NCBI GenBank assembly: GCA_965197905.1
Contig: CBDAOB010000003.1
Span: 384,001-448,000 of the forward strand
Reading direction: 5' to 3'
DNA length: 64,000 nucleotides
From: Candidatus Latescibacterota bacterium
GTDB lineage: Bacteria > Latescibacterota > UBA2968 > UBA8231
The translations under genes and the position numbers were made by a program. Within the stretch, counting starts at the first letter, position 1. Every line of letters starts with the position of its first letter. The notes beneath the pieces are model-generated. The model searched no databases. It had not been told where the DNA came from and was given only the letters and a program-made list of their open reading frames with translations. Below are positions 1,729-28,684 of the stretch, piece by piece.

Positions 1729-3099
1729 TTACATCACATCGTAGCGCAGGAACGAGAAGTACGCCCCCAAAAAGAACACGATATTCCACACACAGAGAAT
1801 GAGAATGTCGATCCAGTTGAGCCGATCTGAGATGGCCGAGTCCTCGTAGGTAAACTGTGGATACCCCTCGATGTTCCGCGAACGCCAGTCATCCCGCTTG
1901 TTCGCTTCGATGTACACATCCAACCCGAAGTCTGTAATCTCGCGACGATATTGGGGCAGCTGATCGAGAAAGAGGTTGCGGTCGCGAATACCGGTTCCCG
2001 CCAGATCAGACGCAGCATAGGCGAACGAAGCAAATGGCGACGCCCTGGAGATGTTCTGCGCCAACGCAATCTGAGCATTCATGGTCTTCTGAAACTGCTC
2101 GTTGATGCGATCCTGAATGTCCATGACCTTCGGCAGGTGATCCTTCTGCATCGTGTTGTAGTTGGCCCACCATTTGGAGCCGTACCGCCTTGGAATGTCG
2201 GGATTCGCCTCCGCCCACACATCGACTTCCGCCTGAAATCTCTTCTCCTCCTCTCGCTTGAGCTGGTTTTTTTCCTTTTCGACCAGCACGAACGATCGTA
2301 CCGAAGTCAACTGTGAAGCGATATACGGCGCAGTGTTGGGAATGACGAGAACCATCAGGACCCAGACCATGAGAAGGATGGTAATGGACGTAGAGGCCAG
2401 ATGAGTGCGCGAGGAGATAAACATGCCAAGGGAGTAGATGACAGACAGATATAGAAGCGCCACCAGGAGAATGAGGCCGAGGAACGCCCAGTGCTCCTCG
2501 CGTAACTCGACGGTGGGAAAGAGCACTACAACCACGAGGCCACATAGCAGCGAGATGATAAACGGACCAATCATGGCAAGGTAGCCGCCGATCCATTTGG
2601 CAAGAATCACGACATCTCGAGGCACGCTGTAGGACATTAACAGCTTCAGAGTGCCCAACTCCTTCTCTCCGGATATGGAATCATAGCTAAAGGCTATGGC
2701 CAGCAGGCTCATCACGATGCCGATGAAGAACAGCAAGTCGATGGGCGGAAAGAGAAATGATACGGGATTGCCTTCGTAGTCGGCTTCGAATTGGGGTTCG
2801 CGAACACCACTAACTTTCGCAGTAACGGTCAGCTCTTCGTTGATGCCTTTGAAGAAGATCTGCATGGGATTCAACGGCTTGTCCACTTTGATGCCATCGA
2901 AAGCCAGATCCCTGGACTCTTCGATCTCGGTCTTATGCATGACGAGATTGGTCCGATAATCCGACAGTGCCTCCTTGTAATCTCTTGTCAGCACAAATGA
3001 GCTGGAGAGCATGATCACCAGGCAGATGATACACGCCAGAGCGAAGCGGAGGCTCAGCAGCTGTTCGAGCAGCTCCTTACGTATTAGCAGGAATAACAT
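1729..3099 (-). CDS. ABC-2/NosY-like ABC transporter permease with large extracytoplasmic loops
   Basis: N-terminal IRKELLEQLLSLRF, motif DSISGEKELGTLKLLMS, multiple TM segments, SRASP motif, ends RYDVM. Confidence 0.85.
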   Translation of the reverse strand: MLFLLIRKELLEQLLSLRFALACIICLVIMLSSSFVLTRDYKEALSDYRTNLVMHKTEIEESRDLAFDGIKVDKPLNPMQIFFKGINEELTVTAKVSGVREPQFEADYEGNPVSFLFPPIDLLFFIGIVMSLLAIAFSYDSISGEKELGTLKLLMSYSVPRDVVILAKWIGGYLAMIGPFIISLLCGLVVVVLFPTVELREEHWAFLGLILLVALLYLSVIYSLGMFISSRTHLASTSITILLMVWVLMVLVIPNTAPYIASQLTSVRSFVLVEKEKNQLKREEEKRFQAEVDVWAEANPDIPRRYGSKWWANYNTMQKDHLPKVMDIQDRINEQFQKTMNAQIALAQNISRASPFASFAYAASDLAGTGIRDRNLFLDQLPQYRREITDFGLDVYIEANKRDDWRSRNIEGYPQFTYEDSAISDRLNWIDILILCVWNIVFFLGAYFSFLRYDVM

Positions 3100-3117
3100 C
3101 GATACCTCCCGAGATTT

Positions 3118-4504
3118 TCAAGTTACGTCGTAACGCAGAAAGAATAGGTACGACAACATTAAAAAAAGCACGTTGAGAACGATAATCACAAGTAGCTCGA
3201 TCATCACCTCATCGATGGCATCGTCGACGCGCGCCGGAACCACCTGCAGCACGGGAAACACTTCATTTTGAAACCAACGCGGGTTCAGTACTCCCTCGTG
3301 AAACCTGTAATGCCATTCCTCGCCCCAACTATCGTACTCGGTGCGGAACCGGGCGTAGGAGGTCTTGAACCTGTCGGATAGATCTACTCCAGTACTGGCC
3401 AGCCCGGTGGCGGCGTAGGTGTAACTTGCGGACGGAGAGAGGCGCGACAACATTTTGCTCAAGTCGATCTGCTGCTGCAATCGTTCCCGGTAATGCTGAT
3501 CTAGCTTCCTTTTTCGATTCTCGCCTTCCTCGCGAACCTTGTTGCGCGCCTCCTGCATCTTTGTACCGAAAAAATACATGCTCGAGTTGAGGCGGTTCAC
3601 CCGCAACCGTGTCTCCCGGTCGATCGACGCCTTTTCAGCGGCGATCTTCTGTGCTGTGGGAACGGGTGACAGCACGCGCGCAAAGACCGGCGCGATATTG
3701 GGTATGACCAGAATCCAACAGATCCACGCGAACAGCGACACCAGCAGGGCCGTAGAGGCCTTGTGAGTCAGGGTTGAAATCATCAACCCCAATGCGAAGA
3801 ACATCGAGATGTAGAGCAGTGAGACGGCAAGTATCCAAATCAGACGCTCCGCCGCCTCACCGCTCAGCTGCACCGAGCCGGTGAACGTACGCGAAGCCGC
3901 CGAACACGGATACCATGAACGGGACCGCCAGCGATGCAAATCCCCCTATCCACTTGCCCATCAGCACCAGGTCGCGGGGCACGGAATTGGCGAGAAGGAG
4001 CTTGAGGGTTCCGCGTTCCTTTTCACCGCAGACGGTATCGAAAACAAACAGCACAGCCAATAGGCTGATAACGATGTTGACAATGTAGACGAAATCGGGC
4101 GTGGCGAACAAAGCGAATAAAGGATTGCGGTAGGGACCTTCGTTGATCTTGCGCGCCCCGTTGAGCCAGACATTCACCTGGGTCGGCAGCTTGCGTTCCA
4201 ACCCGAGGGCGAACATGCTGAGACGACCGGGCCGCCGCCCATGATAACTTCCTTCGGCGGAGAGCATCTCGTCGTGAAACCGTTGGTTGAAATCCTGTTC
4301 ATCCTTGCTATCGGAGTAGAGATTGCTAATGGCGCTCCGGTGCTCCGAGCGAGCCGCCTCGAAGCTGGCCACCGATCTGGCATACTCATCGCTGAGAATG
4401 AATATGCTGGCCTGAATGAGCACGAAGAACAAAACAAAGGTCACCATGAACCGCAGACTCAGTATGTTGGCAGCGATCTCTTTTACGATGAGCGAGACTA
4501 GCAT
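3118..4504 (-). CDS. ABC-2-type permease, split by a frameshift near 3885
   Basis: ORFs 3857..4504 and 3118..3939 together align end to end with the paralog at 13059..14423 (DTVCGEKERGTLKLLL; ISTLTHKASTALLVSLF; FLRYDVT). Confidence 0.85.
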
Positions 4505-4519
4505 CTATCGATGGACGCG

Positions 4520-5977
4520 TTAGTCGAATATGATCCAGCCGTACCTGTCTGGCCGGCGCGTCAATCCATACGTCGGCGTCCACATCGCAAGCTCCGAGTC
4601 CTTGGCGCTGCGCAGCCTGCCGACGCTGAACCCCCAGACGTCCCCCTTCTTTACAGGGGCATCGCTCACTGAAGGGAACATGATCTCGCACTCCATAGCC
4701 CAGGACTTGGGATTCACCTGCGTAGCGCTCTTCAGGTCGGCGTCCCACGTCCAGTCGAGGGAAGGACCTTTCCCGAAACCGATGCTGCGATCGCCGACCA
4801 CTCCGATGCTGTTTATGTAGATGTGGTGGAAAGCCCACTCGTCACGGTCTGCGTCGATGAAGATCTGCATACATGGGTCCTTATGGGTCGCGCCGTCGTC
4901 CTTCTCCTTTGACCACGTTTGCAGATCGCCGGTATCCTCCTCGTACCCTTTAACCGCCACCAACAAACTGCTATCCGTGTACGCCACGTACGCTTCGCTG
5001 CGGCCCGTACCGGGGATAGAACTCATGACCCTGATCATCTTGTAGAACTGGTCGATGCGTGCCGCGTTCTTCCAGACCGGATCGCTGAGGTCTCCGTCGA
5101 TCTGTACCGCCTCCCGCAGCCGAGGAACACGCAGGGCCATCTGATTCTTTTCCAACATGTCCAGTCCCCGCAGGCGCTGCCCGTTGTTGAAATAGAACTT
5201 CCCCAACCGCATCGTCGGATTCTTGCTGTCCGGTTTGAATCTGTGGGCTTTTAGATAGGCCTCCTCGGCGCCGTCCAGGTTCGCCTTGAGCGCTAGCTTG
5301 TCCCCTTCCTGGACCATTTGGGCCACCATTTTTTCCATAAGCTCCCCCGCGTGGCGGCGCAAGGTATCGTCAGTGGTCGCGTTGTAGATCTCCGCGGTCT
5401 TGTCGGCAAGCTCTTTCAGCTCCGCCTCAGTCAACTCCTTACCGCCTATGATCCGGTGGGCTCCCCGCGTGCCGATTCTTTGTGACCGCCACCCTCCGAG
5501 AAACTGAATAGCGCGCACCAGTTCCAATTGGGGTCTGGTTGCCGTTTCGACGTCCAGACGTCGCACGAGGTCGTGGATGAGCTCCTTTTTCCCGGAGTTG
5601 CCGAGCCGGCGGATGGCGATGGCTCGCACTTCTGGCGCCTCGTCGTGGGCCAGCTGCTTCAACGCGACGAGGATGCTCTGGGTAGCTTCGCGCTGGTAGA
5701 TGCGTCCAACCACATCTATGAGATCTACACGCCCGGAAACAGGTTTGGTCGGGTCGGCGGCTGCCTCCAGGATCGCAGGAAGCGACTCAGCATCGCTCAG
5801 CACCAGATCCATCCTGGCGCGCTCGCGGTCCTCACCCCCAGATATCACATCATCAATGGAATCTGAAGTAGGATCGCCGCAGCCCAGGCACAGAGCCAGC
5901 ACTCCGTAGGCCGCCACGAACCTGAAACTCAGGATGTTGTTGACGATTTCTTTACGAATGATATAGAGGAGGATCAT
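4520..5977 (-). CDS. HEAT-repeat + CBM9-like lipoprotein (divergent family member) with a permease-like N-terminus
   Basis: Lipobox LCLGC, HEAT-like LAHDEAPEVRAIAIRRLG, VQIDGDLSDPVWKNA CBM9-like start, shared ALKANL motif. Confidence 0.75.
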   Translation of the reverse strand: MILLYIIRKEIVNNILSFRFVAAYGVLALCLGCGDPTSDSIDDVISGGEDRERARMDLVLSDAESLPAILEAAADPTKPVSGRVDLIDVVGRIYQREATQSILVALKQLAHDEAPEVRAIAIRRLGNSGKKELIHDLVRRLDVETATRPQLELVRAIQFLGGWRSQRIGTRGAHRIIGGKELTEAELKELADKTAEIYNATTDDTLRRHAGELMEKMVAQMVQEGDKLALKANLDGAEEAYLKAHRFKPDSKNPTMRLGKFYFNNGQRLRGLDMLEKNQMALRVPRLREAVQIDGDLSDPVWKNAARIDQFYKMIRVMSSIPGTGRSEAYVAYTDSSLLVAVKGYEEDTGDLQTWSKEKDDGATHKDPCMQIFIDADRDEWAFHHIYINSIGVVGDRSIGFGKGPSLDWTWDADLKSATQVNPKSWAMECEIMFPSVSDAPVKKGDVWGFSVGRLRSAKDSELAMWTPTYGLTRRPDRYGWIIFD

Positions 5978-5989
5978 GCACCCGGAGGT

Positions 5990-6712
5990 TCAGGCAGCTT
6001 GCTCCACCTCTCGGCTGACGTACTCCACGTAGAGCCGTTCGAGGTCTTCGTTGGCCAGCTCATCCCGGGTGAAGATGCGCACCAGGCTGCCCTCGATCAT
6101 GATGCCCACGCGGTCAGCGATCTCCTTGGCGCGAAAAATGTCGTGGGTGGTCATCCACACCGCCTTGTTCTCGCCGCGAAGATCGGCCAGCAACTGCAGA
6201 AATTCAGCCCCGGATTTGGGATCGAGGCCCGAGGTAGGCTCATCCAGCAGGATTACTTCGGCGTTCTTCACGATGGCGATCGCGATTCCCAACTTCTGTC
6301 GCATGCCTTTGGAAAATCCCTTCACGCGCCGGTTGAAGGCATCGCGCTGCAGTCCTACGCGCTCCATTATCTGTTCATACTCCGCATCGGTACTATCCTT
6401 GCGACCGCCGAGTTTTGCAAAGAAATCCAGGTTCTGCCGTGCCGTAAAATTTCCGTAAAGCATGACATTCTCGGACACATAAGCCACGTGTTTCTTGGCC
6501 TCCAGCGGATTCTTGGCCACGTCGATGCCACAGATCTTGACCGTCCCCGCAGTGGGTTCGGTAAAACCGAGGGAAACCATCAAGGTCGTGGTTTTGCCGG
6601 CCCCGTTGGCGCCAAGCATGGTAAAGATCTCGCCTGGCTGAATGGTCAGATCGAGGTTGTTCACCGCCCGGACATCGCCATAGTGCTTGGTCAAACCTTG
6701 GATCTCCAGCAT
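5990..6712 (-). CDS. ABC transporter ATP-binding protein
   Basis: Walker A GANGAGKTT, signature FSKGMRQ, Walker B ILLDEPTSGLDP, H-loop TTHD. Confidence 0.95.
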   Translation of the reverse strand: MLEIQGLTKHYGDVRAVNNLDLTIQPGEIFTMLGANGAGKTTTLMVSLGFTEPTAGTVKICGIDVAKNPLEAKKHVAYVSENVMLYGNFTARQNLDFFAKLGGRKDSTDAEYEQIMERVGLQRDAFNRRVKGFSKGMRQKLGIAIAIVKNAEVILLDEPTSGLDPKSGAEFLQLLADLRGENKAVWMTTHDIFRAKEIADRVGIMIEGSLVRIFTRDELANEDLERLYVEYVSREVEQAA

Positions 6713-6804
6713 TGTTGCCTCCGTGAAAACTGGCCTGAAAGGGTTGGCGCCAGGTGACGGCAGGGGTGCGCGTCAGCAGCTATTAGGATACGATGTGACG
6801 GCGG

Positions 6805-6819
6805 AGTTAACAATGTCAA
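6805..6819 (-). promoter_or_regulatory. Putative operator/-35 motif TTGACATTGTTAACT upstream of the ATPase operon
   Basis: 15 bp identical to 11481..11495; near-palindrome TTGACA-T-TGTTAA. Confidence 0.6.
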
Positions 6820-6917
6820 TTGCATTAGTGCATGCGCCGGCGATATCTGGATCTATTCCATCTTCATATATAATTGTTTATTAGCAACTTACGGGTCTTT
6901 TTCGTGGCCGATCAGGC

Positions 6918-6946
6918 TTGACATGGTGCACCTTGCCCGCTAACGT
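6918..6946 (+). promoter_or_regulatory. sigma70-type promoter for the tolC-like operon
   Basis: TTGACA (6918-6923), 17-bp spacer, TAACGT (6941-6946), upstream of ATG 7005. Confidence 0.65.
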
Positions 6947-7004
6947 TGGCCACAAACCCCGAAAATCAAGCTCCATTCTGAAGAAACCGACTAACAGCAC
7001 TCTT

Positions 7005-8348
7005 ATGTTTTGTGGCGCAAGGAGGTTCTTGAGCGGCTTGGGCCTCTGTTTTTTTACGGCCGCGTCGGCGGACGATCGTGTCCAACTCGACATGAGCTTC
7101 TGTCTCGACTCGGCCCTGGAACACAATCGCACCCTGGTGCAGGGGCGGGAGAAGATCAAGGAGGAGGAGAGCGGCAGGGTTGTCGTGCACTCACGGTTCA
7201 TGCCCCACCTGGATCTGACTGCAAATTACGATGCGCTGCGTACGGATCGGCGGGGCGTGACGGATGATGAGATCTCCAGCAGGTTGCGTTTCACCCAGCG
7301 GCTGCTGGAGTTCGGACCCGACCTTGCGGCCGAAGTGCAGCTACGCGCCGACCTCCGTGAGGCGATCTACTCCTACCAGGACCAGATCTACGCTGTCTTT
7401 TCAGAGGTGTGGCGCACCTATCACCTGATTCTCCTGCAGGATCGCCAGCTTGCCATTCGCCAACAATCCCGGCAGGGGTTTCAGGAGGTCTACGAGCGCA
7501 AGCAGGCCCGATTCGAGCGCCGGCTCTCTGATGAGGAGGAGGTGCTCACCGCCTATTTGAATGTGCTCAACGAAGAGCTGGCCATCAACAACGTGGAGCG
7601 CGCCCAGTTCAACAACAAGATGACGCTGCTACGATTGATTGGGCGCCCCATCGGAACGCAAGTGGAACTTGCATCCAGCGAGGTGGGATTCACCCCCGAT
7701 CCCGACAGTTCGGTCCAGGTAGCGATGGGAAACAGCGTCCAGGTTGCACTTGCCGAGAAACGTCTAGAAGAGCAACAGCGCGTGGTGAGCGAGATCGGCT
7801 GGGACTACACCCCCAATCTAAAGGTAGGCGCCGGTGTGGAAGACGGCAGGCGCGACGCCAGCGTCAACGTCGACAAAGACGGCGAAACCTGGGGCGTGGA
7901 CGTGGAGTCGCGGTTGCGGTTGAGCGAGAAGGAGACCGAACCCGGGCCCGGAGATGAGACCCAGTGGTTTGCCCGGGTCGAGGCGCGCATTCCGATCTTT
8001 GAAGGGGGATCGCGCGTTGGGCGGGAGCGTTTGGAGAAGGCTCGGGAACGTCAGGTACAGGTCGAGGTCGCGGACCTGCGCGCCGCCACCGAGCTCCAGG
8101 TGCGACAGGCGTATCAGTCGATGCTGGAAGCAGAGGGGCGGCAGCAGATTCAGGAGGAGCAGGTGCGCATTGCCCGGCGCCGCCTGGAGATCAACCAGAT
8201 CCTCAAAGACAAGGGGCAGGCAGACGAGAGCAAGCTGGAACAGATACGCACCCAGTTCTTTGCAGCCCAGGATATCCTGTTCCAGAATCAGGCCACCTTC
8301 ATCGACCGTCAGGCCGATCTGCGCAAACGTATGGGCTACTTCGAATGA
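7005..8348 (+). CDS. TolC-family outer membrane efflux protein
   Basis: Signal peptide after ATG 7005, then two OEP-like repeats (ALEHNRTL...PHLDLTANY...FTQRLLEFG; RIPIFEGG...VRQAYQSMLEA) with long helices. Confidence 0.85.
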   Translation: MFCGARRFLSGLGLCFFTAASADDRVQLDMSFCLDSALEHNRTLVQGREKIKEEESGRVVVHSRFMPHLDLTANYDALRTDRRGVTDDEISSRLRFTQRLLEFGPDLAAEVQLRADLREAIYSYQDQIYAVFSEVWRTYHLILLQDRQLAIRQQSRQGFQEVYERKQARFERRLSDEEEVLTAYLNVLNEELAINNVERAQFNNKMTLLRLIGRPIGTQVELASSEVGFTPDPDSSVQVAMGNSVQVALAEKRLEEQQRVVSEIGWDYTPNLKVGAGVEDGRRDASVNVDKDGETWGVDVESRLRLSEKETEPGPGDETQWFARVEARIPIFEGGSRVGRERLEKARERQVQVEVADLRAATELQVRQAYQSMLEAEGRQQIQEEQVRIARRRLEINQILKDKGQADESKLEQIRTQFFAAQDILFQNQATFIDRQADLRKRMGYFE

Positions 8349-9862
8349 CGCAGCGCAAGGTTCCCCACCTTCTTCTGTTGCTTTTGGTGCATGCTGCTGC
8401 GGCCTTCGGCGAGCAGAGCCTGACCAAGGAACAGCAACTGAGCAAGCTGAAGCTAAGAGAGCGGATTTTGGCATTGGAAGAACGACGTACAAGCTTGCAG
8501 ACCCACCGAGAAGAGCTGCAGACGACGAGAGAGCTCTTCGACGGAGGTTTCGTCGCGTTGCAGAAGCTCAAACAGACGCGCAATCGTTTCGAGCAGGCCC
8601 GCCTCGATTACGAGTGGGCGGAGATTGAACTCGAGGAGGCCAAGCTGGAACTGTTGAGAACAGCGACGCACATCATCGTCTCGGAGGCACGCAAGTACAA
8701 GACCGAAGAGGGCAAGTTCATGGTTGACGTCGTTCTTGAAAACGCTTCCGACATTCGCGACGCCCTGCTCGTGGACGCGGCGCTGACGGAGGAGGAGTTG
8801 CGCACTCTCCTGAAGGTAGAGCACATCTTTGCGTCGGTGAGTTATGGTCCGATCGTAGGCGAGCCTTACGAGATCCGCATCCCGTCTCTGGAGGTGGGGG
8901 AGCAACGCAAGATCACCTACCGCCTGCTTCGGGACGAAGAGGCGGTCTACGTCAACCTGAAGTATCTGGATATCAAAGATGAGAAGCCGGTGATCCTCAA
9001 GAAGGGAAGCCAGCAAGATCTTCCCAGCATCAACTCGGCGCAGTTCTCCCAGGAAGGCGAGCTCAATCAAACAGTGAGGTTCGGTCTAACACTCCAGCGC
9101 CTGGCGGAGGAGGAACGTAACTTCGCCCTCGCCGTGATTGGGCTGCCACCGCGGATCGACTACGCCTTCGTAAATCAGGGAGCGAAAGTCAATCAGATAA
9201 AATTCGACGAAACTACCTCGGAGGTGAAACTATCGCTGGAAATGGATATCCCGGAGAAGCTTGATCGGAAGCTGGTCGAGGTAACACGCACCTTTTTCGC
9301 TCTGGTTACGAACGTCAGCGAGTACGCCAAAATCAATGAGCTCCGCGCTCGCTACGGCGAAAACCAAGTCCAGGAAGAAGACGTGAAGTTGCTCAAAGCC
9401 AACTACGTTCGTCTCGAGCTGATTCCCAAGGGTATCGGCAAACTGGAGGTGCTGATCTCCAATCGGTACCTGGAGACCGAAGTCGGCGAGGAGCTGCAGT
9501 TTCGCGTCGAATTCCTCAACCGCGGCACGGTAGCGGTGCAGAATATCCGGGCCGAGCTCGACTTACCGTATGAATGGGAAAGCAGCGTTGAGCCGAAGCT
9601 CTTCAAGCTGCTTGAGCCCGGGGAGAGCGGTCCCATCTCGATCTGGTCCCGCCCGCCCGAGAACATCGCTGTAGGAGACTATGAAGTAGGGGTCGAAGCC
9701 CAGGGACAAGTTGGTACGGAAAACATCGAATCTCTGGAAAAGAACATCACCGTCCGCATCGGTGCCCGCTCCAACATTACCGGAAATGCCATTCTCATCG
9801 GGGTTCTCGTGTTGATGGTTGTGGGTATAGGTGTGGCCAGCGTCAAGATCAGTCGCAAGTAA
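8345..9862 (+). CDS. Periplasmic protein: signal peptide, coiled-coil hairpin, Ig-like/NEW3 domains, C-terminal TM anchor
   Basis: NEW3 (NPCBM-associated)-like FLNRGTVAVQNI...WESSVEP...LEPGES...PPENIAVGDY; C-terminal hydrophobic helix followed by KISRK; overlaps the upstream stop (ATGA). Confidence 0.75.
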   Translation: MTQRKVPHLLLLLLVHAAAAFGEQSLTKEQQLSKLKLRERILALEERRTSLQTHREELQTTRELFDGGFVALQKLKQTRNRFEQARLDYEWAEIELEEAKLELLRTATHIIVSEARKYKTEEGKFMVDVVLENASDIRDALLVDAALTEEELRTLLKVEHIFASVSYGPIVGEPYEIRIPSLEVGEQRKITYRLLRDEEAVYVNLKYLDIKDEKPVILKKGSQQDLPSINSAQFSQEGELNQTVRFGLTLQRLAEEERNFALAVIGLPPRIDYAFVNQGAKVNQIKFDETTSEVKLSLEMDIPEKLDRKLVEVTRTFFALVTNVSEYAKINELRARYGENQVQEEDVKLLKANYVRLELIPKGIGKLEVLISNRYLETEVGEELQFRVEFLNRGTVAVQNIRAELDLPYEWESSVEPKLFKLLEPGESGPISIWSRPPENIAVGDYEVGVEAQGQVGTENIESLEKNITVRIGARSNITGNAILIGVLVLMVVGIGVASVKISRK

Positions 9863-9864: not shown

Positions 9865-11397
9865 ATGCCAGCGCTTCGTAGAGTCCTCATGTCGGCAGTT
9901 CTCCTGCTCGCGGTTTTCAATGCTGGCGCCAAGGATCTGCGGACCAAAGAGCAGCGCCTGTACGATATTCAGCTGCGCAAATCCCAGTGGAAGGTGGACA
10001 ACGCCAGGCTCGACATGGAAATCAAGTTGAGCGACTACGAAGAGATCCAAGATCTCTTTAACCAGAAGATCGGCACCCTGGACGGCTTGAACGAAGCGCG
10101 ACGCAAATCGCAGCAGGCCAGGCTGAAATACGACCATGCCGTCATCGACCTGGAGTCCAGACGCCTCTCCTTCCTGCGCGACGCCACCCACATTTCGATC
10201 ATAGAGGCCAAGAAGTACAAAACGCCTGAAGGATACCGAAAGGTAGAGATCACCCTCGAAAACGCGTCCAATCTCAATCAGGCAGCCTCCCTCAATCCGG
10301 ACAAGAGCCTCGATCAGGTGCGCGACCTGCTGGAGATCCAGAACGTACAGGTCTCCTTGCGCCAGAGGGACAACTTGATCATTGGCGAGCCTTACGAGGT
10401 GCTGGTTCCCTCATTGAAATTGGGCGCCCGGCGCAAGCTCATGTTTCGCCTGTTGAACGACCGAGAATCGGTCAAGCTTTCTCTCACACTTCGCGACAAC
10501 CAACGCAAGGACGTACGCGTAGTTCTGCGCAAGGAGTCGCTGCAGGACATACCCACCATCAACTCGGTCCAGTTCTCCCAAGAGGGTGATCTGAACTCCA
10601 AGGTGGACTTCGATATCATTCTGGAACGGCTCGCGGAAGACGAAAAGACCTTTCGCCTGGCCGTAGTAAATCTGCCGAGTGAAATCGACTTTGCTTTCCT
10701 GGACAAGGCCACCAATGCCAGCTTGACCCAGGTGAAGTTCAGCGAGCAGGTTACCCGTCAGCAATTGGAATTGGAGATTCAGATTCCGGAGAAATTGAGC
10801 CGCCATTTCGTAGATCAGACGGTTGAATTCTACGTTTTCGTGACCGACGCGGAAGGATTCCAGCAGATCAGTAAGCTGAACAAGAAATACGGCACGAAAC
10901 GGATGGAGCTCGAGGATATAAATACGGTGAAGGGCAACAAAGAACGCTTCGAGCTCGTTCCGCGGGGCAAGGGCGCGCTCGAGACCATCATCGCCAACCG
11001 GTATCAGGAAATCAAGGTCGGCGAAGAGGTCACCGTACGCGTCGACTTGCTCAACACCGGGACCCTTGAAGTGGCAGATTCCCACATGATCCTTACAGCA
11101 CCGCTGGATTGGACCTACGAAGTGGTGCCGGACACGATTGCACGGATCATACCTGGCGAAAAGGAACCGGTGAACATAACATTCGTGCCCCCCGAAGAGA
11201 TGGGAGTGGGCGAGTATGGGATTCGTGTCGAAGCTGCCGGTTACGTCGGTGTAGAGAAGGTCGAAGCACCGGAGAAGGACCTGACTATTCGAGTGGAAGC
11301 CCAAGCCAGCGTCATCCGCAACGTCCTGATAATCGGCGCGGTTATCACCCTCGTCGTGGGAGTAGCTGTCGCGAGCATCAAGGTGAGTCGCCGGTGA
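9865..11397 (+). CDS. Paralog of 8345..9862 (coiled coil + NEW3 + C-terminal anchor)
   Basis: Collinear motifs EAKKYKT, LENAS, GEPYE, INSVQFSQEG, IPEKL; ends ASIKVSRR. Confidence 0.75.
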   Translation: MPALRRVLMSAVLLLAVFNAGAKDLRTKEQRLYDIQLRKSQWKVDNARLDMEIKLSDYEEIQDLFNQKIGTLDGLNEARRKSQQARLKYDHAVIDLESRRLSFLRDATHISIIEAKKYKTPEGYRKVEITLENASNLNQAASLNPDKSLDQVRDLLEIQNVQVSLRQRDNLIIGEPYEVLVPSLKLGARRKLMFRLLNDRESVKLSLTLRDNQRKDVRVVLRKESLQDIPTINSVQFSQEGDLNSKVDFDIILERLAEDEKTFRLAVVNLPSEIDFAFLDKATNASLTQVKFSEQVTRQQLELEIQIPEKLSRHFVDQTVEFYVFVTDAEGFQQISKLNKKYGTKRMELEDINTVKGNKERFELVPRGKGALETIIANRYQEIKVGEEVTVRVDLLNTGTLEVADSHMILTAPLDWTYEVVPDTIARIIPGEKEPVNITFVPPEEMGVGEYGIRVEAAGYVGVEKVEAPEKDLTIRVEAQASVIRNVLIIGAVITLVVGVAVASIKVSRR

Positions 11398-19988: not shown

Positions 19989-20007
19989 GATCGGCGGTCG
20001 TCTCACA

Positions 20008-20280: not shown

Positions 20281-20285
20281 GGGGA

Positions 20286-20477: not shown

Positions 20478-22978
20478 TGCCGAACCCCCAGTTTTGTTAT
20501 CAACTCTTCGGCCTCTTGGCGCCGCTCCACGATTCGCTTCATCCGACTCTTGATTCTTGACCGTTGCCTCGCATCTTTGGCCACAGGCAACTTCAGGTCC
20601 TTCCAGCGATCCCCGATGTTTGGCAGGGTCGTGTCAATAAAGACCTTGGATGGGATTTGTAGACGCGTCAGCGGGTGAGATAGCAGATAGGCCAAATACA
20701 ATCCGTCTATGCCATATGGATTGGGGGATTTTATGGCGCGAAGCACGACACAGTGGCTATTCAACAGAATCTCGGTGTCCGTTGGAAGCACGATCCCAAC
20801 ATCACCGGTGCGGTAACTTCCCTCTTTGACAAGCAATAGGTCCCACGGCTGTAAGTCTACGCCACTGCCCTTCACATCCAAGTAGACGTGCCTCGGAACA
20901 CTTGCCGTTGGATTCTTGTAGATGGACCAGTTGCCAATATCCCCATTGCGCACATATGGCACAGGTCCAGTTCCCTTATAAGCATTGTCGGGGGACCCGT
21001 GTCCCCTGAAGACAGTAATGACGCCCTCTCTGATTAGCCGATTCACTGTAACCATTTGAAGGCCCTGTCCCTTGGCCTGAACTCTCAATTGTTCGTCGTA
21101 GCCCTTCCAGTAGTAGCGAGGGACAAATACGTCGTTACGAATCGCGCTTGGTTCCACGATGAAAACATGCTCGTTATTCTTGTTAGACGAGTGTCTCAGT
21201 TCCTTCCTGATTATCTCGGTATCATCCCATTTCTCTTCCGTTACGATGCCATCCCGGACGCGGTACTTTGTCTTCCCCAAGTGATCGCGTCCCATCTCCT
21301 CAGCCACGCCAAAAACCACGGGTTTCTGCGGACGCCCCTTCTCGATGATCCAAAGAAGCGTCTTGGCGTTGCAGTGTGGCCTGAATGTGTTGTGCGGCAG
21401 ATCAATAACTGCCTTCACCCGCCCCCGCCTCTTGATGTAATCAACGATATACTTCTTCGATGGTGCATGGGCGTATGTTTCAGGGAGAACAATTGCAAGC
21501 CGCCCGCCGCTCTTCAGCATGTCGAGGCAACGCTCAATGAATAATTCCTGAGTGGGCGTTTTGCGCGGCTTCTCTTCACGTACCCCCCCCTTACGTGACC
21601 ACGAGTGGCCAAGATCGAACTCCGCAGATTCCGTTTGTGAAACTTTCGTATGCTTACTTCCAAATGGTGGATTTGTAAGGATCACGTCGAACTGGCGCAA
21701 TTGACCGCCCTCATCAATTGCAACGTCTCTGGCTGCACCTTCGAACTCCTCGGCGCGATGCAGGGAATTGGCTTGGGCAATGCAGCTCTTCCCGTCGCCG
21801 ATGATAGCCATATAGGCTTTCGTGATCTTGACGAGATCATTCTCTTTGTCAAGTCCGTGAGATCGTGTTCTTGGCGATATTGCGCTTCGCCTCTTCACGC
21901 TTATTTGGGGACAAGTTGGCCCACTTGCGCCCATGGTTCATGGTAGACTACATGTGTTGCAGGGCCGAAATGCAGGAAGGCGTCCACTGCCACACGCGGG
22001 GTCCATAATCGTTTCCCCGGGCCGTGGGTTGATTAGCTGGATTGCCGTCTTGACAACCTCTCGGGGAGTGAAGAACTCTCCCTTCTCTCCTGCAAACTTG
22101 CTCTCGGCGAAGACTTCAAACGCACCTCCTACTACGTCCTCGTCAGTCTCCAAGAGAGAGTATTCCTGTAGTTCGCCCACGACGTATGCAAGTGACTTGT
22201 TTTCAAGAAGAATCGTCTCGCCAGGATCAAATACTCCTTCCCCCGACAGCTCTCGCTTTACTCTGCCGAAAAGTTCATCTACGCGCCGCCGAACTTCGGA
22301 AAAACCGTTGTCGGCATCATGCCTGCCAACCCTGAACTCCGGGGTGGTATTGCGCGAAACAGCGCCGTGTTGTTCGTCCATGAGCTTGCAGAACAGAAGC
22401 TTCGTCATCTCGCTGCCGAGCTTTGCCCGACGGCTGATGTTCGTGTTTGTATACAACTCATTCAGGAGCCGCCGAAACGTTGCCTTCAAATGGGTGGCTT
22501 GGCGGAGATCGGAATATGTGTGCGTGCCGATGTCGTCAAGGCTTTGCCCGCATGTTGGAACTGCGAAAATGACACCGCTCGAAATAGTTGCAGATTCCGG
22601 TTCCTTGAGCAGGTATTCGATTTCCTTGCCATTTGTCCAAGCGCCCCACAGCGCCGATGTAGCGGTCATGTAGCTCTGTAATTGACCATCGCCGCACTGC
22701 GGTTATCCCTCTTGAAGGCGAGGATTCCGGCGATGTCAAGGTTCTGACTTCTCCTTGACGGATCATCCGGCCGATAGACTGCTAGCCCGGTCTCGGAAAA
22801 CAAGCGCCCGCTCTCGGGCCGCGCTGCCACGTTGGATTACGACTTCGATGTCAATGTGGCCCTTCGCATATCCATGGTCGGCAAGCGCCTCTTCAAAGTC
22901 CTGGCGCACGCGCTCTTCTGGCTTAGATGTATCGACTGACTTGCCGGTTGCGAAGTCGGGAACTTTTAGGTTGCTCAC
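20474..22978 (-). CDS. Single-chain R-M enzyme (HsdR-N-like domain + N6-adenine methyltransferase + TRD); several frameshifts
   Basis: EERVRQDF...GY...IDIEV (HSDR_N-like), GEFFTPREVV, motif I DPACGSG, motif IV ILTNPPFG, C-terminal HsdS-like region. Pieces lie in ORFs 22763.., 22536.., 21938.. and 20474.. Confidence 0.75.
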
Positions 22979-23926
22979 GCATACAAGGTCCTTGTAGAGA
23001 ACTCGGACTTGCCGACCATGGCGGCGACCACGTGTTGCATCTTTGCCAGCGTGTCCAGCTTGCAGGACGTTGTGGCGGCCGGCGAACTCCGTGGACGTAG
23101 CGGTGCAGGTGCTTGGCCGAGAGCCTCTGCTAGACGCCCTTGTGGGCAACGCTTGAGCATCGACCAGAAGCTCTCCACGCCGTTGGTGTGGATCCCGCAA
23201 CGAACATACTCTCCGCCACTGTGGTAGACCGCCTCGTGCCGCCTGCGGCCCTTGTAGGCGCTGGAGCCATCGGCGTAGACCATGAGCTTCCTTGTCCGAA
23301 GAGGAAGCAGTCCACTGGTGGAGAAGGTCCGCAAGGTCTCTTGGTCCGTCTGGTGGATCACTCTCGCCACAACTTGGTTCGTCTCTCGGTCCTTCGCACC
23401 GACCACCGCCACCTTGGGCAAAGGTCCAGGGCCCGCGAGCAACCTGTCTTTCTCGTGCAAAGTTCTGTTCCCTGCCTCCAACGTGAAGTCCGACTCCACC
23501 TCTACGGGGCCGGAGAACTTGGCTGCCACGTCCGAGTACGCTTCCCTGATCCGGTGCAGCATGAACCACGCCGTGGCCTGGCGGACACCGAGATCCCGAT
23601 GGAGCTTCATCGAGGATACGCCTTTGAGGCTGGTCATCTCACGATAGAACGCCCAAGCCGAGACGCGGAGGGGCAGCTTGCTGATCTTCCATCGCTGTGC
23701 CCGTCTGCAGGCTGAAGTATTTCTTGCATTCCCGGCAACGATAAGGCATGGGCTGGCCGCCATCGACTCGATAGGCTCCCTCAGTGATCCCGCACTTCAA
23801 GCAGCACATCTGCCCATCCGGCCAGTGCAGGCCCTCGAACCATTCAACGGCTTTCTCCTCGGTCCCGAACATCTCCGCCATCTCCATAACGGTGACGCCC
23901 TCTCGGTAGTGCTTGCCTGGTCCCAA
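22975..23926 (-). CDS. IS1595-family DDE transposase, frameshifted
   Basis: N-terminal Zn ribbon (WPDGQMCCLKCG...YRCRECKKYFS), KGVSSMKLHRDLGVRQATAWFMLHRIRE, VYADG, HTNGVESFWSMLKR. Confidence 0.85.
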
Positions 23927-23959
23927 GAATCTGATTTCCCCCCTTCCACCAAAGAAGAT

Positions 23960-24469
23960 ACCCATTCGGGGTCCTTGACTACGCTGCCGCCCCGGGTTCA
24001 GACCAACACACTGATGGGTTACACCGACGAGGCGATGTACTGGGGTATCCGCTGTTTCGACGCCCACCCCGAAAGCCTGGTGGTCCTGCCGTTCGAAGAC
24101 AAGGATGACGCCAACAGGAAGCAAGATATCATCTCCTTGTTTTTCGATCGGAATCGAGACCGCAAGACGATCTCCGTAATGCTGATAAACAGCGAGGGAT
24201 ACGTGAGGGATGGCTATGATGATTACAACAAAAGCCGCCAGCGGGACCACTCCTGGGATGCGGACGGGACCGCGGCTACCTACGTCGGCGACGATTACTG
24301 GTCCGTTGAATTCGAGCTTCGCTGGGATCCTAAATACAATCCCCCCCCCGCTCCAGGTGACGTTTCTGGCCTAGACATTCCTCGCCTGTTTCGCGGGGGT
24401 GTCGAATGGAGTCAGCCGTTTCGCGGATACGGCGATCTCAATGCACCCGGCTATTTGGTCTATCGTTAG
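23960..24469 (+). pseudogene. 3' fragment (CBM9-like part) of a lipoprotein copy
   Basis: THSGSLTTLPPRVQTN...PGYLVYR matches the C-terminal third of copies 8 and 9. Confidence 0.8.
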
Positions 24470-24490
24470 GATCTTGCTACGAATCCTACC

Positions 24491-25861
24491 ATGGCAATCG
24501 AACATCCTTTGATTCCCCACCCATTCGCACTGAGAGTGGGTTGCGTCCCAGCCGTCGCTCTGTGCCTGGTGGCCTGCGAATCATCCATTGAAGACAGTAT
24601 CAATGATCTTTCCAGCGGTCCCGATGAGCGTGCCGCCGCAAGACACGAGCTCATTTTAGCCTCGGACAAAGCCGTTGAGCCACTTATCGCCGCGCTGGAA
24701 TCGCGAGATGACACAAAGGCCCGTGCCGAGGTGGCCGATATTTTGGTAGGCATAATGGCGCGATCGAGAAACGAGCGAGTCGCAGGTGTGCTCAAGAAAC
24801 ATCTACTTGACGATCCCAACCCGATGGTGCGCGGACGTATTGCCGAGGAGCTCGGACTCTATTTGCGCTCCGAGTTTTTTGACGTTTTTCTGCAGGCGGC
24901 TTCCGATCCCTCGCCGCTGGTGCAAACTCCTGCGCTGCATGTTCTGGCCAACGTGATCGACCGGCTGAATGAAGAGCAGACCCAAACCTTGCGCCAGCTC
25001 GCCAGCGAGCGCGCCGGAGCCCAAGAGCGATCCGTCCGCGACGCCGCCCTGTACCTCGTGGAGGAATTTGTCGGCCGTTGGGCTCAAAAGGCTAGGGAAG
25101 CAGCACTAAAGGCGGATCTGTCGGTAGCGGATTCTATCTACAACGTGGTACTGACCTACGCACCTGCCAGCAGACAAGCAAACTACTACATGGGTAGCTT
25201 CTATCTCGAATACGGCGACCGCGAACACGGGTTGCAGCTGTTGCGGGAAAATCGCCTGCTGGTGGACGCGCCCCGGTTCCCGGCAGCACCGCGGATTGAC
25301 GGCCGACTGGACGATCCGGTTTGGGAGCATGCCGCCAGGATAGATTCGTTCTACACCCATTCCTCCGGATTACGAGCAACACTTCAACCCCGAGTTCAAA
25401 CCAACGTGTTCATCGGCTACACTGACGAGGCGTTGTATTGGGGTGTACACTGTTTCGACGCGCACCCTGATAGCCTGATTGTCGTGCGATACGACGACCT
25501 GACAGGGGGCGAGCAACACGACAGAATCTCGTTCCGTTTCGACCGCAACCTGGACAGGAAGACGATTGCCATGGTAGGTGTAAATAGCGCAGGGGTGGTG
25601 AGAGACGGCTGGAATGACTTCAACAAGAGCATCGAGCGCGACTACCATTGGGATGCGGAGGGCAGCGCAGCGGCGTATGTCGGCGACGATTTCTGGTCCC
25701 TCGAATTCGAGCTTCGTTGGGACCCGAAGTACCACCCCCGGCCGGTTCCTGGCGAGATGTCGGGCATAGATTTTGTCCGCATGTTCCGCACAGTCGAGTA
25801 CAGTCAAGCCTTTCCTGGGTATGATTACCTCAAGGCGACTGGATACCTGGTCTATCAATAA
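24491..25861 (+). CDS. HEAT + CBM9-like lipoprotein, copy 7
   Basis: Lipobox LVAC; collinear with the other copies. Confidence 0.8.
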   Translation: MAIEHPLIPHPFALRVGCVPAVALCLVACESSIEDSINDLSSGPDERAAARHELILASDKAVEPLIAALESRDDTKARAEVADILVGIMARSRNERVAGVLKKHLLDDPNPMVRGRIAEELGLYLRSEFFDVFLQAASDPSPLVQTPALHVLANVIDRLNEEQTQTLRQLASERAGAQERSVRDAALYLVEEFVGRWAQKAREAALKADLSVADSIYNVVLTYAPASRQANYYMGSFYLEYGDREHGLQLLRENRLLVDAPRFPAAPRIDGRLDDPVWEHAARIDSFYTHSSGLRATLQPRVQTNVFIGYTDEALYWGVHCFDAHPDSLIVVRYDDLTGGEQHDRISFRFDRNLDRKTIAMVGVNSAGVVRDGWNDFNKSIERDYHWDAEGSAAAYVGDDFWSLEFELRWDPKYHPRPVPGEMSGIDFVRMFRTVEYSQAFPGYDYLKATGYLVYQ

Positions 25862-25885
25862 GATCTTGCTACGGGGTAACCTGCC

Positions 25886-27277
25886 ATGGCGATCCAGCAT
25901 CTCTTGATTCCCCACCACCGCTCCCGCGTGGCGACCGCGCTCGCGCTGAGAGGCCTCCATATCGTAGCCACGGCTTTGTTCCTCGCCGCTTGCGGGCCTT
26001 CCGTAGAAGACAGTATCGAGAAGCTGGGTGCCGGACCTGACGAGCGAGCCATGGGCAAACACGAGCTCATCCTGGCGAAGGACGAACACGTCGAGCCAAT
26101 CATCGCGGCGCTGGAAAGGCAGGATGGCAGCGACGTCCGTCCTGACTTGGCAGAGGTGCTAGTGGCCCGGTTCCTGCGATCGGAGAGCAAACGAATCTGG
26201 TCCGTTCTCGAAAAACACCTGCTGGAAGATTCCGACTCGCGGGTGCGCAGCCGTATTGCTGAAAAACTCGGGCTTCACCTCCGTTCCGAGCTTTTTGAGG
26301 TTTTCCTGCAGGCTGTTTCCGATCCGTCACCTGCGGTGCAATCCCCTGCGCTGCTCGCTCTTGGCAACGTTCTCGACCGCCTGACCATCGAACAGACCCA
26401 AACCTTGCGCCAGCTAGCCAGCGAGAGCGCGAAGGCTCAGGATCAGTCTGTTCGCGAAGCAGCACAATACTTGGTTGAGGAGTTCGTCGCCCGCTGGGCA
26501 GAGAAGGCGCGTGAGGAAGTTCTCAAGGCCAACGTTTCCCGCGCGGACTCGATTTACAATGTGGCGTTGGCTTATGCCCCGACCAGCAAGCAGGCAAACT
26601 ATTACCTTGGAAAATTCTATTACGAGAACGGCGAGCGCGAGCGCGGATTCCAGCTGCTGCGGGAACACCGTCTGCTGATCGACGTGCCCAGGTTCGCTTC
26701 AGCTCCACGAATCGACGGACGGCTGGATGACCGGATCTGGACAGGTGCCGGTAGAATCGATTCGTTTTACACCCATTCAAGTTCCCTCACAACACTGCCG
26801 CCCCGCGCGCAGACCAATGCGTTGATGGGCTACACCGACGAGGCTATCTACTGGGGGATTCGTTGCTTCGACGCGCACCCCGAAAGCCTCGTCGTCCTGC
26901 CGCTAGAAGACAAGGAAGACTCCAACCGGCATCAAGATATCATCAGTTGGTTCTTCGATCGAAACCTGGACCGGAAGACGTTCGCCATAATCCTGATAAA
27001 CAGCGAAGGATACATACGGGATGGCTGGGATGACCGCGAAAAAAGCCAGCAGCGGGACCACACCTGGGATGCGGACGCAACCGCGGCTACCTACGTCGGC
27101 GACGATTTCTGGTCCGTCGAACTCGAGCTTCGCTGGGATCCTAAATACCATCCGCCGCCGGTTCCCGGTGACGTCTCGGGTTTGGATATACCCCGTTTTT
27201 TCCGCGCTATAGAGTGGAGTCAGCCGTTTCGAGGATACCGGGGTGTGGACGCACCAGGGTATTTAGTCTATCAGTAA
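25886..27277 (+). CDS. HEAT + CBM9-like lipoprotein, copy 8
   Basis: Lipobox LAAC; collinear with the other copies. Confidence 0.8.
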   Translation: MAIQHLLIPHHRSRVATALALRGLHIVATALFLAACGPSVEDSIEKLGAGPDERAMGKHELILAKDEHVEPIIAALERQDGSDVRPDLAEVLVARFLRSESKRIWSVLEKHLLEDSDSRVRSRIAEKLGLHLRSELFEVFLQAVSDPSPAVQSPALLALGNVLDRLTIEQTQTLRQLASESAKAQDQSVREAAQYLVEEFVARWAEKAREEVLKANVSRADSIYNVALAYAPTSKQANYYLGKFYYENGERERGFQLLREHRLLIDVPRFASAPRIDGRLDDRIWTGAGRIDSFYTHSSSLTTLPPRAQTNALMGYTDEAIYWGIRCFDAHPESLVVLPLEDKEDSNRHQDIISWFFDRNLDRKTFAIILINSEGYIRDGWDDREKSQQRDHTWDADATAATYVGDDFWSVELELRWDPKYHPPPVPGDVSGLDIPRFFRAIEWSQPFRGYRGVDAPGYLVYQ

Positions 27278-27298
27278 GATCTTGCTAAGTAGCCTACC

Positions 27299-28684
27299 AT
27301 GGCAATCGAAGATCCTTTGATCCCCCACCATCGATTCCGCTCGACAGCCGCTTCCGCGATAAGCGGGATCTGTGTCACGGCTTTCTTCCTCGCCGCGTGC
27401 GGACCTTCTATAGAAGACAGCATCGAAAAGCTGGGTGCCGGACCCGACGAGCGGGCAATGGGCAAACACGAGCTCATCCTGGCTGGGGACGAAGACGTCG
27501 AGCCGATCATCGCGGCGCTGGAAAGGCAGAATGGCAACGAGGTTCGTCCCGATTTAGCCGAGGTTCTGGTGGCCCGGCTCCTGCGATCGGAAAGCAAGCG
27601 AATCTCGTCCGTTCTCGAAGAACACCTGCTGAAAGATCCCGACTCGCAGGTGCGCAGCCGTATTGCCAATAAACTCGGGCTTCACCTGCGCTCCGAGCAT
27701 TTTGACGTTTTCCTGCACGCCGTCTCCGATCCGTCACCTGCGGTGCAATCCCCTGCACTGCTCTCCCTGGGCAACGTGCTCGACCAGCTGACCGACGAAC
27801 AGAGTCAAACCTTGCGCCGACTCGCCAGCGAGGGCGCGAAGGCTCAGGATCAATCTGTGCGCGAAGCGGCACTCTACTTGGTGGAAGAGTTCGTCGCACG
27901 GTTGGCAGAGAAGGCGCGTGAAGAAGTTCTCAAGGCCAACGTGTCCCTAGCCGACTCGATCTACAACGTAGCACTGGCTTATGCCCCTACCAGCAAACAG
28001 GCAAACTATTACCTTGGGAAATTCTATTACGAGAACGGCCAGCGCGAGCGCGGATTCCAGCTGTTGCGGGAACACCGCCTGCTGGTCGACGTGCCCAGGT
28101 TCGCATCGGCTCCGCGGATCGACGGACGATTGGATGACCCGATCTGGGCAGGTGCTGGAAGAATTGATTCGTTTTACACCAATTCAAGATCGCTCACGAC
28201 GCTGCCGCCCCGCGTTCAGACCAATGCATTGATGGGCTACACCGACAAGGCTATCTACTGGGGGATTCGCTGCTTCGACGCGCACCCCGAAAGCCTCGTC
28301 GTCCTACCGCTCGAAGACAAAGACGACTCCAACCGGCAACAAGATATCATCCAATGGTTCTTCGATCGAAACCTGGACCGAAAGACATTCGCCGTGATCC
28401 TGATAAACAGCGAAGGATACATACGGGATGGCTGGGATGACCGCAACAAAAGCCAACAGCGGGACCACACCTGGGATGCGGACGCGACCGCGGCTGCCTA
28501 CGTCGGCGACGATTTCTGGTCCGTCGAACTTGAGCTTCGCTGGGATCCTATATACAATCCGCAGCCGGTTCCCGGTGACATCTCGGGCTTGGACTTACCC
28601 CGTCTTTTCCGCGTTATGGAGTGGAGTCAGCCGTTTCGGGGATACCGGGGTGTCGACGCACCGGGGTATTTGGTCTATGAGTAG
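27299..28684 (+). CDS. HEAT + CBM9-like lipoprotein, copy 9
   Basis: Lipobox LAAC; closest to copy 8. Confidence 0.8.
   Translation: MAIEDPLIPHHRFRSTAASAISGICVTAFFLAACGPSIEDSIEKLGAGPDERAMGKHELILAGDEDVEPIIAALERQNGNEVRPDLAEVLVARLLRSESKRISSVLEEHLLKDPDSQVRSRIANKLGLHLRSEHFDVFLHAVSDPSPAVQSPALLSLGNVLDQLTDEQSQTLRRLASEGAKAQDQSVREAALYLVEEFVARLAEKAREEVLKANVSLADSIYNVALAYAPTSKQANYYLGKFYYENGQRERGFQLLREHRLLVDVPRFASAPRIDGRLDDPIWAGAGRIDSFYTNSRSLTTLPPRVQTNALMGYTDKAIYWGIRCFDAHPESLVVLPLEDKDDSNRQQDIIQWFFDRNLDRKTFAVILINSEGYIRDGWDDRNKSQQRDHTWDADATAAAYVGDDFWSVELELRWDPIYNPQPVPGDISGLDLPRLFRVMEWSQPFRGYRGVDAPGYLVYE

Follow-up and report, generated by a model that had tools for sequence, protein, structure and literature searches.

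The genes between positions 1729 and 28684 of a 64,000-nucleotide stretch of DNA from a Candidatus Latescibacterota bacterium (assembly GCA_965197905.1, contig CBDAOB010000003.1, positions 384,001 to 448,000; referred to here as the window) probably encode a tripartite exporter built on a type V ATP-binding cassette (ABC) transporter, with a hetero-oligomeric pair of adaptors and exchangeable pairs of permeases. The block holds one ABC ATPase gene, three permease genes, one gene for an outer membrane factor (OMF) of the OEP/TolC family, two genes for NEW3 proteins and ten lipoprotein genes, nine of them intact. An earlier note, made from the sequence alone, had listed about this inventory and had taken it for a trans-envelope machine. 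The inventory was borne out, each part being found in its place, and the idea of a trans-envelope machine has gained substance from two observations: the NEW3 proteins bear a hairpin of the adaptor type, and the core of the system co-occurs across phyla. Named relatives of the encoded proteins belong to Candidatus Latescibacterota.

The NEW3 proteins as candidate adaptors

The two NEW3 proteins, new1 (8345–9862, + strand) and new2 (9865–11397, + strand), are paralogues of 40% identity and matching architecture, and they look like non-canonical periplasmic adaptors. In the AlphaFold model of new1 (mean predicted local distance difference test score 84.6, predicted template modelling score (pTM) 0.46) a signal segment is followed by a two-helix hairpin (residues 28–66 and 72–107), three beta-sandwiches and a C-terminal helix. 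The hairpin, residues 28–107 in all, precedes three immunoglobulin (Ig)-like domains, the last of which is the NEW3 domain, and these lead to a C-terminal transmembrane (TM) helix with a basic tail. By inspection the N-terminus of the adaptors resembles a cleavable signal, and by hydropathy their sole strong TM segment is C-terminal (482–500 and 487–505).

After exclusion of some proteins for their length, the hairpin was represented by a profile of 203 full-length members: the 2 from the window, 95 out of 109 adaptors encoded at fetched loci, and 106 out of 149 distant representatives. Compared with a profile of eight canonical membrane fusion proteins (MFPs) from the genome of the window (G000), it gave an hhalign probability of 95.6% (E 1.3e-8) and was in register at the tip; the permease, lipoprotein and OMF controls gave 0.5%, 0.07% and 22%, respectively. 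The docking motif of MFPs has the spacing R96/L100/S107 in MexA (PMC6447562). At the hairpin tip, 41 of 45 single-adaptor loci have Arg followed by Leu at +4 and Ser or Thr at +11, as do 35 of the 106 distant representatives; the same spacing surrounds 46 of the 2581 other leucines in these adaptor proteins. In the two-adaptor clade, to which the window belongs, all 50 cases retain the Leu and have Ala, Pro, Thr or Ser seven positions further on, whilst the Arg is found in none of the 50. Retention of the Leu and of a small residue together with loss of the Arg agrees with the mutagenesis of MexA, in which the Leu was essential, the Arg dispensable and the +7 residue had to be small (PMC6447562). 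Across periplasmic adaptor proteins (PAPs) the RLS tip motif is widely, albeit not absolutely, conserved (PMC4446572).

Membership of the canonical PAPs was considered and rejected, as there is neither a lipoyl insertion point nor an N-terminal TM segment or lipid anchor. In a canonical PAP the hairpin is spliced into a lipoyl domain made of two halves (PMC4446572); here it starts right after the signal peptide, which leaves no room for the N-terminal half. Pfam gave no match to PAP beta-barrel or membrane-proximal domains in 35 representatives, and a Foldseek search with the whole adaptor model returned only integrin-leg and axonemal Ig arrays, with a TM-score of at most 0.30. Among PDB sequences the best matches of the hairpin are MexJ and MexA, both weak (E 0.08–0.9). 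The last beta-sandwich matches Ig-like domains (Z 11–12), residues 109–360 being barely covered by the structural comparison. Furthermore, the last Ig domain, the TM helix and the Arg-Arg tail match a NEW3 protein of Sinorhizobium that has no hairpin (96.7%). The simplest history would be that an accessory subunit of ABC-2 transporters acquired an MFP hairpin and, with the hairpin, an OMF.

The outer membrane factor and the ATPase

The OMF (7005–8348, + strand) matches Pfam family OEP (E 3.6e-33) with two repeats. Within the clade of the window the glycine at the H7–H8 tip is invariant and that at the H3–H4 tip is replaced by a basic or polar residue; the OMFs of Aminicenantes retain both tip glycines. 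We infer that new1 and new2 may be specialised for two unlike OMF tips, by analogy with the non-equivalent roles of TriA and TriB. A complex prediction combining an OMF trimer (residues 130–447) with the new2 hairpin (residues 45–90), each with its own alignment, scored 0.01 with no controls folded; as the truncated multi-copy input lay outside calibration, this speaks neither for nor against docking.

The ATPase (5990–6712, − strand; ABC_tran E 4.5e-31) carries the Walker A and B, signature and H-loop motifs. The motifs are complete in 14 of 15 sampled orthologues, the fifteenth being cut by the end of its locus. It is the sole close copy in its genome, where the next best proteins are 33–35% identical, and comparison with the sister genome (G002) gives a ratio of non-synonymous to synonymous substitution rates (dN/dS) of 0.02.

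Distribution of the core

Examination of 78 adaptor-centred loci, 31 with two adaptors and 47 with one, revealed, within the sequence available at each, an OMF in 54, an ATPase in 57 and a permease in 59. At two-adaptor loci the OMF gene lies directly upstream in 29 of 31 cases, and the remaining two loci end at a contig edge. Canonical MFP genes number seven in these loci, at a distance of 6–8 kb, some of them beside genes for resistance-nodulation-division (RND) transporters. The adaptor is present in 66 of 139 other Latescibacterota genomes and in many Aminicenantes; matches with E up to 1e-30 form 235 clusters at 50% identity. Adaptor and permease family are both present in 61 of the 139 genomes, spanning eight families, and both absent from 72; five have the adaptor only and one the permease only. 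The earlier note had made its proposal depend on the components occurring together in related genomes, and the parts are indeed found together in relatives.

Four of the five adaptor-only genomes come from one genus, g12. In G013, one of the four genomes of g12, the OMF and adaptor genes (L040:9189-12492) are broken, and the genus has no permeases of the family. In g12 the parts of the system appear to be undergoing decay together.

Loci in Aminicenantes comprise an OMF, one adaptor, an ATPase and up to nine permeases, with no lipoprotein of the window's kind. They often include a sensor kinase and a sigma-54 regulator, of another type than the pair at 29933–35759 of the window. Some loci carry the label 'Eubacteriales', which would imply monoderm hosts; this was rejected because the proteins group with those of Aminicenantes and some of the loci encode an OMF.

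Permease pairs and orphans

The three permease genes of the window fall into two classes, A and B, corresponding to the first and second genes of a pair. The gene at 1729–3099 (− strand) encodes an ABC-2/type V permease of class B (Pfam ABC2_membrane_2, E 5e-32; DUF3526, E 8e-8). Its neighbour at 3118–4504 (− strand) is a class A pseudogene, read as two open reading frames (ORFs; 3857–4504 and 3118–3939) through a 5-base deletion near 3880 relative to the intact copy in the sister genome. Contigs from two samples of two studies cross the deletion without a gap, one of the two samples possibly being the source of the window itself, and it is therefore more than an assembly slip. An intact class A permease is encoded at 13059–14423 (+ strand), as Pfam, alignment and tree agree, with no adjoining B partner. 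These permeases have six TM helices by hydropathy and two helical, DUF3526-like periplasmic domains, and their closest solved structure is NosY (7o0y; E 4.6e-21 across the TM core). An identity as MacB/FtsX (type VII ABC) proteins was rejected, given six TM helices rather than four, the ABC2_membrane_2 and DUF3526 matches and NosY as nearest structure.

A FastTree phylogeny of 73 permeases separates the first gene of the Latescibacterota pairs from the second: within each of the two major groups, the two positions form distinct clades (supports 98/91 and 87/99), which is what A/B heterodimers would lead one to expect. The 13059 (A) and 1729 (B) products probably pair, since the former has no adjoining B gene and the A gene next to the latter is a pseudogene. 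The genome of the window has seven permease genes, as against a single close ATPase, a single OMF of this kind and a single pair of adaptors. Two further lipoprotein–permease–permease satellites lie away from the window, with satellite permease pairs at C3:364903-367921 and C5:723700-726510. Two other genomes (G019 and G022) have about 20 permease matches each, and in G019 only one of eight fetched permease regions has an ATPase of its own. The interchangeable parts visible in the data are the permease pairs, rather than the lipoproteins. In another genome, G004, three divergent permeases of the family lie in a cluster of the peptide-maturation type right after the pump ATPase gene (L023:17522 to L024:10813), together with genes for radical SAM, S8 and S41 peptidase, BtrH-like and type IV ABC proteins.

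The HEAT-TPR-CBM9 lipoproteins

The lipoproteins are 450–485 residues long (about 48 kDa) and are predicted (pTM 0.73) to consist of HEAT repeats, a TPR pair and a beta-sandwich. The top structural match of the beta-sandwich is the CBM9 domain 1i82 (Z 13.2, root-mean-square deviation 2.9, 170 residues, 19% identity). Pfam CBM9_1 is above cut-off in four of four scanned orthologues, and below cut-off or without a match in the window copies. The lipobox Cys is invariant in 11 of 11 aligned proteins; by inspection most of 22 copies have an L-A-A-C-type box, with short h-regions and some atypical n-regions. Two subtypes are distinguished. 'lip1' is encoded at 11632–12993 (+ strand; alternative ORF start 11584) and 'lipA' at 4520–5977 (− strand). 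The first 24 or so codons of lipA (5900–5977) derive from the 5' end of a permease gene (the match is to the C3:367810 region of the same genome), so that the n-region of the signal peptide is now formed by a permease elbow helix; the fusion retains the lipobox and is shared with the sister genome.

The earlier note had treated the full combination of genes as one system. This holds for the core and fails for the lipoproteins, which occur in only 4 of the 78 adaptor loci, in none of the 47 single-adaptor loci among them, and which follow one permease subfamily. With 11 candidates scored per genome, a lipoprotein was found in 20 of 139 genomes. These include all 18 in which the permease subfamily nearest to 13059 occurs; of the other 121 genomes, 2 have a lipoprotein. 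Within genus g13, three genomes have both lipoprotein and permease subfamily, and four two-adaptor genomes have neither. The lipoproteins are thus an accessory that tracks one permease subfamily, outside the conserved core. Those of G011 and G018, from the set of 139, and of G005, from a set of 40 genomes, form one derived clade (support 100). A PMT_2 (GT-C) glycosyltransferase gene adjoins two of these three (L159:6684-10161 in G011, L161:441-3078 in G005), a hint that the CBM9 domain may recognise a glycan linked to protein or lipid.

Only the window genome and its sister have the long array, with 22 and 18 matches; other genomes have 0–5. In total the genome of the window holds 23 lipoprotein genes or remnants. 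Between these two genomes, dN/dS is 0.02–0.14 for the core and 0.12–0.45 for seven intact lipoprotein pairs, two pairs with a frameshifted copy in the sister genome having been left out; the copies would accordingly be functional, loosely constrained and turning over. The array of ten copies has expanded at the level of the genus, with purifying selection relaxed. The earlier note had pictured the lipoproteins as interchangeable binding subunits, an idea that finds no support from selection: pooled dN/dS is 0.22 in the CBM9 domain and 0.18 in the HEAT/TPR part, and no diversifying selection in the CBM9 domain was seen in dN/dS at the depth of this genome pair. As a whole, the earlier interpretation is partly supported.

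Proposed mechanism

In the exporter proposed here, a dimer of the ATPase would power an A/B heterodimer of type V (NosY-like) permeases, whose helical periplasmic domains are tall. Around the heterodimer would stand a ring of six adaptors, three copies of either paralogue, held next to the permease by their C-terminal helices in the manner of the NEW3/ABC-2 modules that have no hairpin. The Ig stalks would cross the periplasm and the MFP-type hairpins dock tip-to-tip on the TolC-like trimer, giving a 3:6 assembly and an outward conduit. The single core may serve several permease pairs encoded elsewhere, and the pairs would then determine the cargo; shared-module energy-coupling factor transporters offer an import-side analogy for plug-in pairs of this kind.

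The lipoproteins are tentatively proposed to be membrane-anchored loaders of glycan-bearing cargo, in which the CBM9 domain would hold the cargo and the HEAT/TPR part would contact the pump. That they are instead the cargo of the pump seems somewhat doubtful. Their size of 48 kDa and their survival without the pump in one clade slightly favour the loader, whilst their copy number and scatter favour the cargo reading. Unlikely, taken as a whole, is the fuller proposal of a shared conduit of ATPase, hetero-hexameric adaptor and OMF that accepts plug-in A/B pairs, one subfamily of which would deliver the 48-kDa lipoproteins to the cell surface.

A number of observations weigh against the exporter model. 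The OMFs of the window's clade are without the H3–H4 glycine that is critical in OprM (PMC6447562), and the adaptors of the window are without the tip Arg, new2 having Glu at that position in 13 of 27 cases. Pfam families of MFP hairpins match none of 35 distant representatives, six of which match OEP weakly instead. Structural scores of the hairpin against EmrA, AcrA and MacA (Z 9.8–10.8) lie close to those of unrelated coiled coils (up to 10.3), and even EmrA and AcrA (Z 10.6–10.8) are no better than these. The sealing of a conduit by an Ig stalk is a difficulty for the model. Stalk length is also not fixed, as some relatives (P0127, P0130 and P0131) have adaptors of 718–797 residues with the first Ig domain in three copies, implying a longer stalk. 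Of 22 single-adaptor loci with 5 kb of sequence to either side, 13 have an OMF nearby and 9 have none. Genomes in the survey are related, so that the co-occurrence counts overstate independence; the permease subfamily behind the tally of 18 out of 18 was delimited by a cut-off (E up to 1e-100) that was set where the data showed a gap; and the divergent lipoproteins of G005, G011 and G018 persist without that subfamily. Finally, no common cargo gene family was found beside the orphan permease pairs in 20 regions of six genomes, among 30 neighbour proteins scanned.

Alternative explanations

A first alternative is lipoprotein secretion, in which the machine would extract Sec-exported lipoproteins from the inner membrane and thread them unfolded through the OMF to the surface, the array being an expanding set of surface proteins served by one pump. 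The imbalance between 23 lipoprotein genes or remnants and a single core with three permease pairs' worth of genes fits this idea, as do the distance of many copies from any permease, their faster turnover than that of the core with broken copies in both genomes, and their close tie to one permease subfamily; Sec-dependent export through an OMF has a precedent (PMC8277102). Known periplasm-fed cargo reaches about 10 kDa, as against some 48 kDa and a compact predicted fold here. No AatD-like acyltransferase is encoded at the locus, and the derived lipoprotein clade exists without the permease subfamily. On balance secretion of the lipoproteins is improbable.

The array could also be a bystander, a family that came by chance to lie beside an ancestral permease pair and was amplified in tandem with no functional tie to the pump. 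Its restriction to two genomes of one genus would be consistent with this, as would a five-fold difference in dS among copies, suggestive of recombination, and the broken or scattered state of many copies; linkage may simply be inherited. Presence nevertheless follows the permease subfamily within g13 and again in a second class (G047), both lipoprotein subtypes keep their adjacency to a permease, and all seven tested copies are under purifying selection, which makes a mere bystander quite improbable.

NosDFY acts as a mechanical transducer, and NosY is the closest solved permease. On this pattern a NosFY-like ABC unit might move a periplasmic lipoprotein in envelope upkeep or protein quality control, with the adaptors only tethering it to the OMF. 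The hairpin-less relative from Sinorhizobium adjoins degQ and groES/EL, which suits such a role, and cargo genes are not evident among the scanned neighbours. A dedicated OMF immediately upstream in nearly all two-adaptor loci and a hairpin that keeps a gate-contacting tip motif, needless for a mere tether, tell against it; many specialised permease pairs, moreover, suggest many substrates. A mechanical coupler is very improbable in consequence.

Least credible of all is an importer whose CBM9 lipoproteins would catch sugars and hand them to the permease: the CBM9 match, the abutting lipoprotein and permease genes in at least eight other genomes and the presence of two CBM9 loops in the most variable lipoprotein windows speak for it, but the CBM9 domain shows no surplus of amino-acid change, the HEAT part has a window of equal variability, most cores are without a lipoprotein, glycoside hydrolases are absent from the conserved neighbours, and import fed by binding proteins is ill-matched to an outer-membrane channel with sealing adaptors, type V ABC units with an OMF being exporters.

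Layout of the locus and neighbouring genes

The genes form two divergent arms, the left on the − strand and the right on the + strand. The tight coupling reported earlier was confirmed, with intergenic spacings of −4 to 65 bases except for 292 in the divergent region, 234 between new2 and the first lipoprotein of the right arm, and the insertion described below. So was the order of a permease directly after a lipoprotein on both arms (15 and 65 bases). Promoters presumably lie in the divergent region (6713–7004), and no sigma-70 promoter or terminator match was found in 6600–7100, which includes it. Rfam gave no match in 1–36000, no NCBIfam model was above cut-off for 14 proteins, and the ESM Atlas returned matches only to the proteins' own uncharacterised families.

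Downstream of the class A permease on the right arm come four tandem lipoprotein genes (14427–15782, 15807–17195, 17192–18580 and 18606–19988), a split one (20005–24469) and three more in tandem (24491–25861, 25886–27277 and 27299–28684), all on the + strand. The split gene has a 5' piece (20005–20284) resembling copy 7 and a 3' piece (about 23960–24469, in an ORF starting at 23678) resembling copies 8 and 9. Between them lies an insertion of about 3.7 kb (20285–23960, − strand) outside the system, with pieces of an N6 DNA methyltransferase (20474–21934 and 21938–22669) and an IS1595 transposase remnant (22975–23763). The insertion is absent from the sister genome and single-copy in that of the window; contigs of one sample span it, and in the other sample it is partly uncovered.

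The ends of the block coincide with a region common to the sister genome (1728–20284 and 24522–28698, about 90% DNA identity). That shared block is without the flanking genes, which were accordingly excluded from the system: a PCMT-like methyltransferase (28690–29859, − strand) that is convergent with the array and resembles the type of ATP-grasp peptide maturases (TIGR04188, below cut-off), and a hybrid sensor kinase with carboxypeptidase-regulatory, propeller and Y_Y_Y domains together with a sigma-54 response regulator (29933–35759, − strand). Further along, a CBM9 and DUF5916 protein (45524–47701, + strand) is distantly related to the C-terminal domain of the lipoproteins. Four phytanoyl-CoA dioxygenase (PhyH) genes, TauD and luciferase-like oxygenases are scattered over 39119–61062.

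Relationship to known systems

The combination had been thought to be without a characterised counterpart, and no characterised system was found to match it. MacAB-TolC is similar in having an ABC ATPase, a permease with periplasmic domains, a hairpin adaptor and an OMF, and in that its cargo may be periplasmic (PMC8277102). The permease here is, by contrast, a six-TM, ABC2_membrane_2/NosY-like protein forming predicted A/B heterodimers, with no MacB, and the adaptor shares only the hairpin of MacA, which here sits on a C-terminally anchored Ig stalk.

The adaptor of E. coli YbhFSR, YbhG, is a canonical PAP. Like the system described here, YbhFSR has two differing ABC-2-type permease subunits and a separate ATPase in a tripartite pump (PMC7190983, PMC13739795). 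It differs in its canonical PAP and its fused double nucleotide-binding domain, and has no Ig-stalk adaptor, orphan permease pairs or lipoprotein partner. TriABC-OpmH of P. aeruginosa likewise uses two paralogous adaptors with non-equivalent roles (PMC4446572, PMC13328181), TriA and TriB being 36% identical as compared with 40% for new1 and new2, albeit with an RND transporter and canonical PAPs. AatPABCD and CexPABC move Sec-dependent periplasmic cargo (dispersin and CexE) through an OMF by means of an ABC system (PMC8277102); they employ a MacB-like permease, a canonical PAP, cargo of about 10 kDa and the auxiliary AatD/CexD. Membership of the Aat/Cex group was rejected for want of such a permease, PAP and auxiliary protein, the cargo candidates here being 450–485 residues long.

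NosFY resembles the system in the TM core of NosY, but NosY has 276 residues, is without the two helical periplasmic domains and works with no OMF or adaptor; no Pfam match to NosD, NosL or N2O reductase was found among the 46 window ORFs scanned. A module in Sinorhizobium medicae (NZ_CP104150) of a NEW3 protein, ABC-2 ATPase and permease shares the Pfam family of the permease as well as the last Ig domain, TM helix and Arg-Arg tail of the adaptor. It has a single short permease, no hairpin and no OMF within the 10 kb shown. The module, for which no earlier characterisation was found, lies on a plasmid, at L149:2750-7253. The CBM9 domain of Thermotoga maritima Xyn10A (1i82) has the fold of the lipoprotein C-terminal domain, which in the window is joined to HEAT/TPR repeats and a lipid anchor and not to an enzyme.

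Significance

Judged from its genes, the system probably represents a previously undescribed form of tripartite pump that has a new family of adaptors, and it would function like the MacAB-TolC and YbhFSR types of pump whilst standing outside both. No publication on this pump or adaptor type was found in a search that left out most subscription papers and supplements. To our knowledge, the adaptors of all characterised TolC-dependent pumps belong to one structural family. Here a channel-docking hairpin has apparently been grafted onto an unrelated, Ig-stalked subunit of ABC-2 transporters, which would amount to an independent solution for bridging the periplasm and would offer a natural test of what the hairpin can do on its own. 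The pump type is common in uncultured phyla, and it provides the NEW3 membrane proteins and the DUF3526 permeases, both uncharacterised families, with a role that can be tested. Furthermore, it suggests that the specificity of a pump may be set by exchanging its permease pairs.

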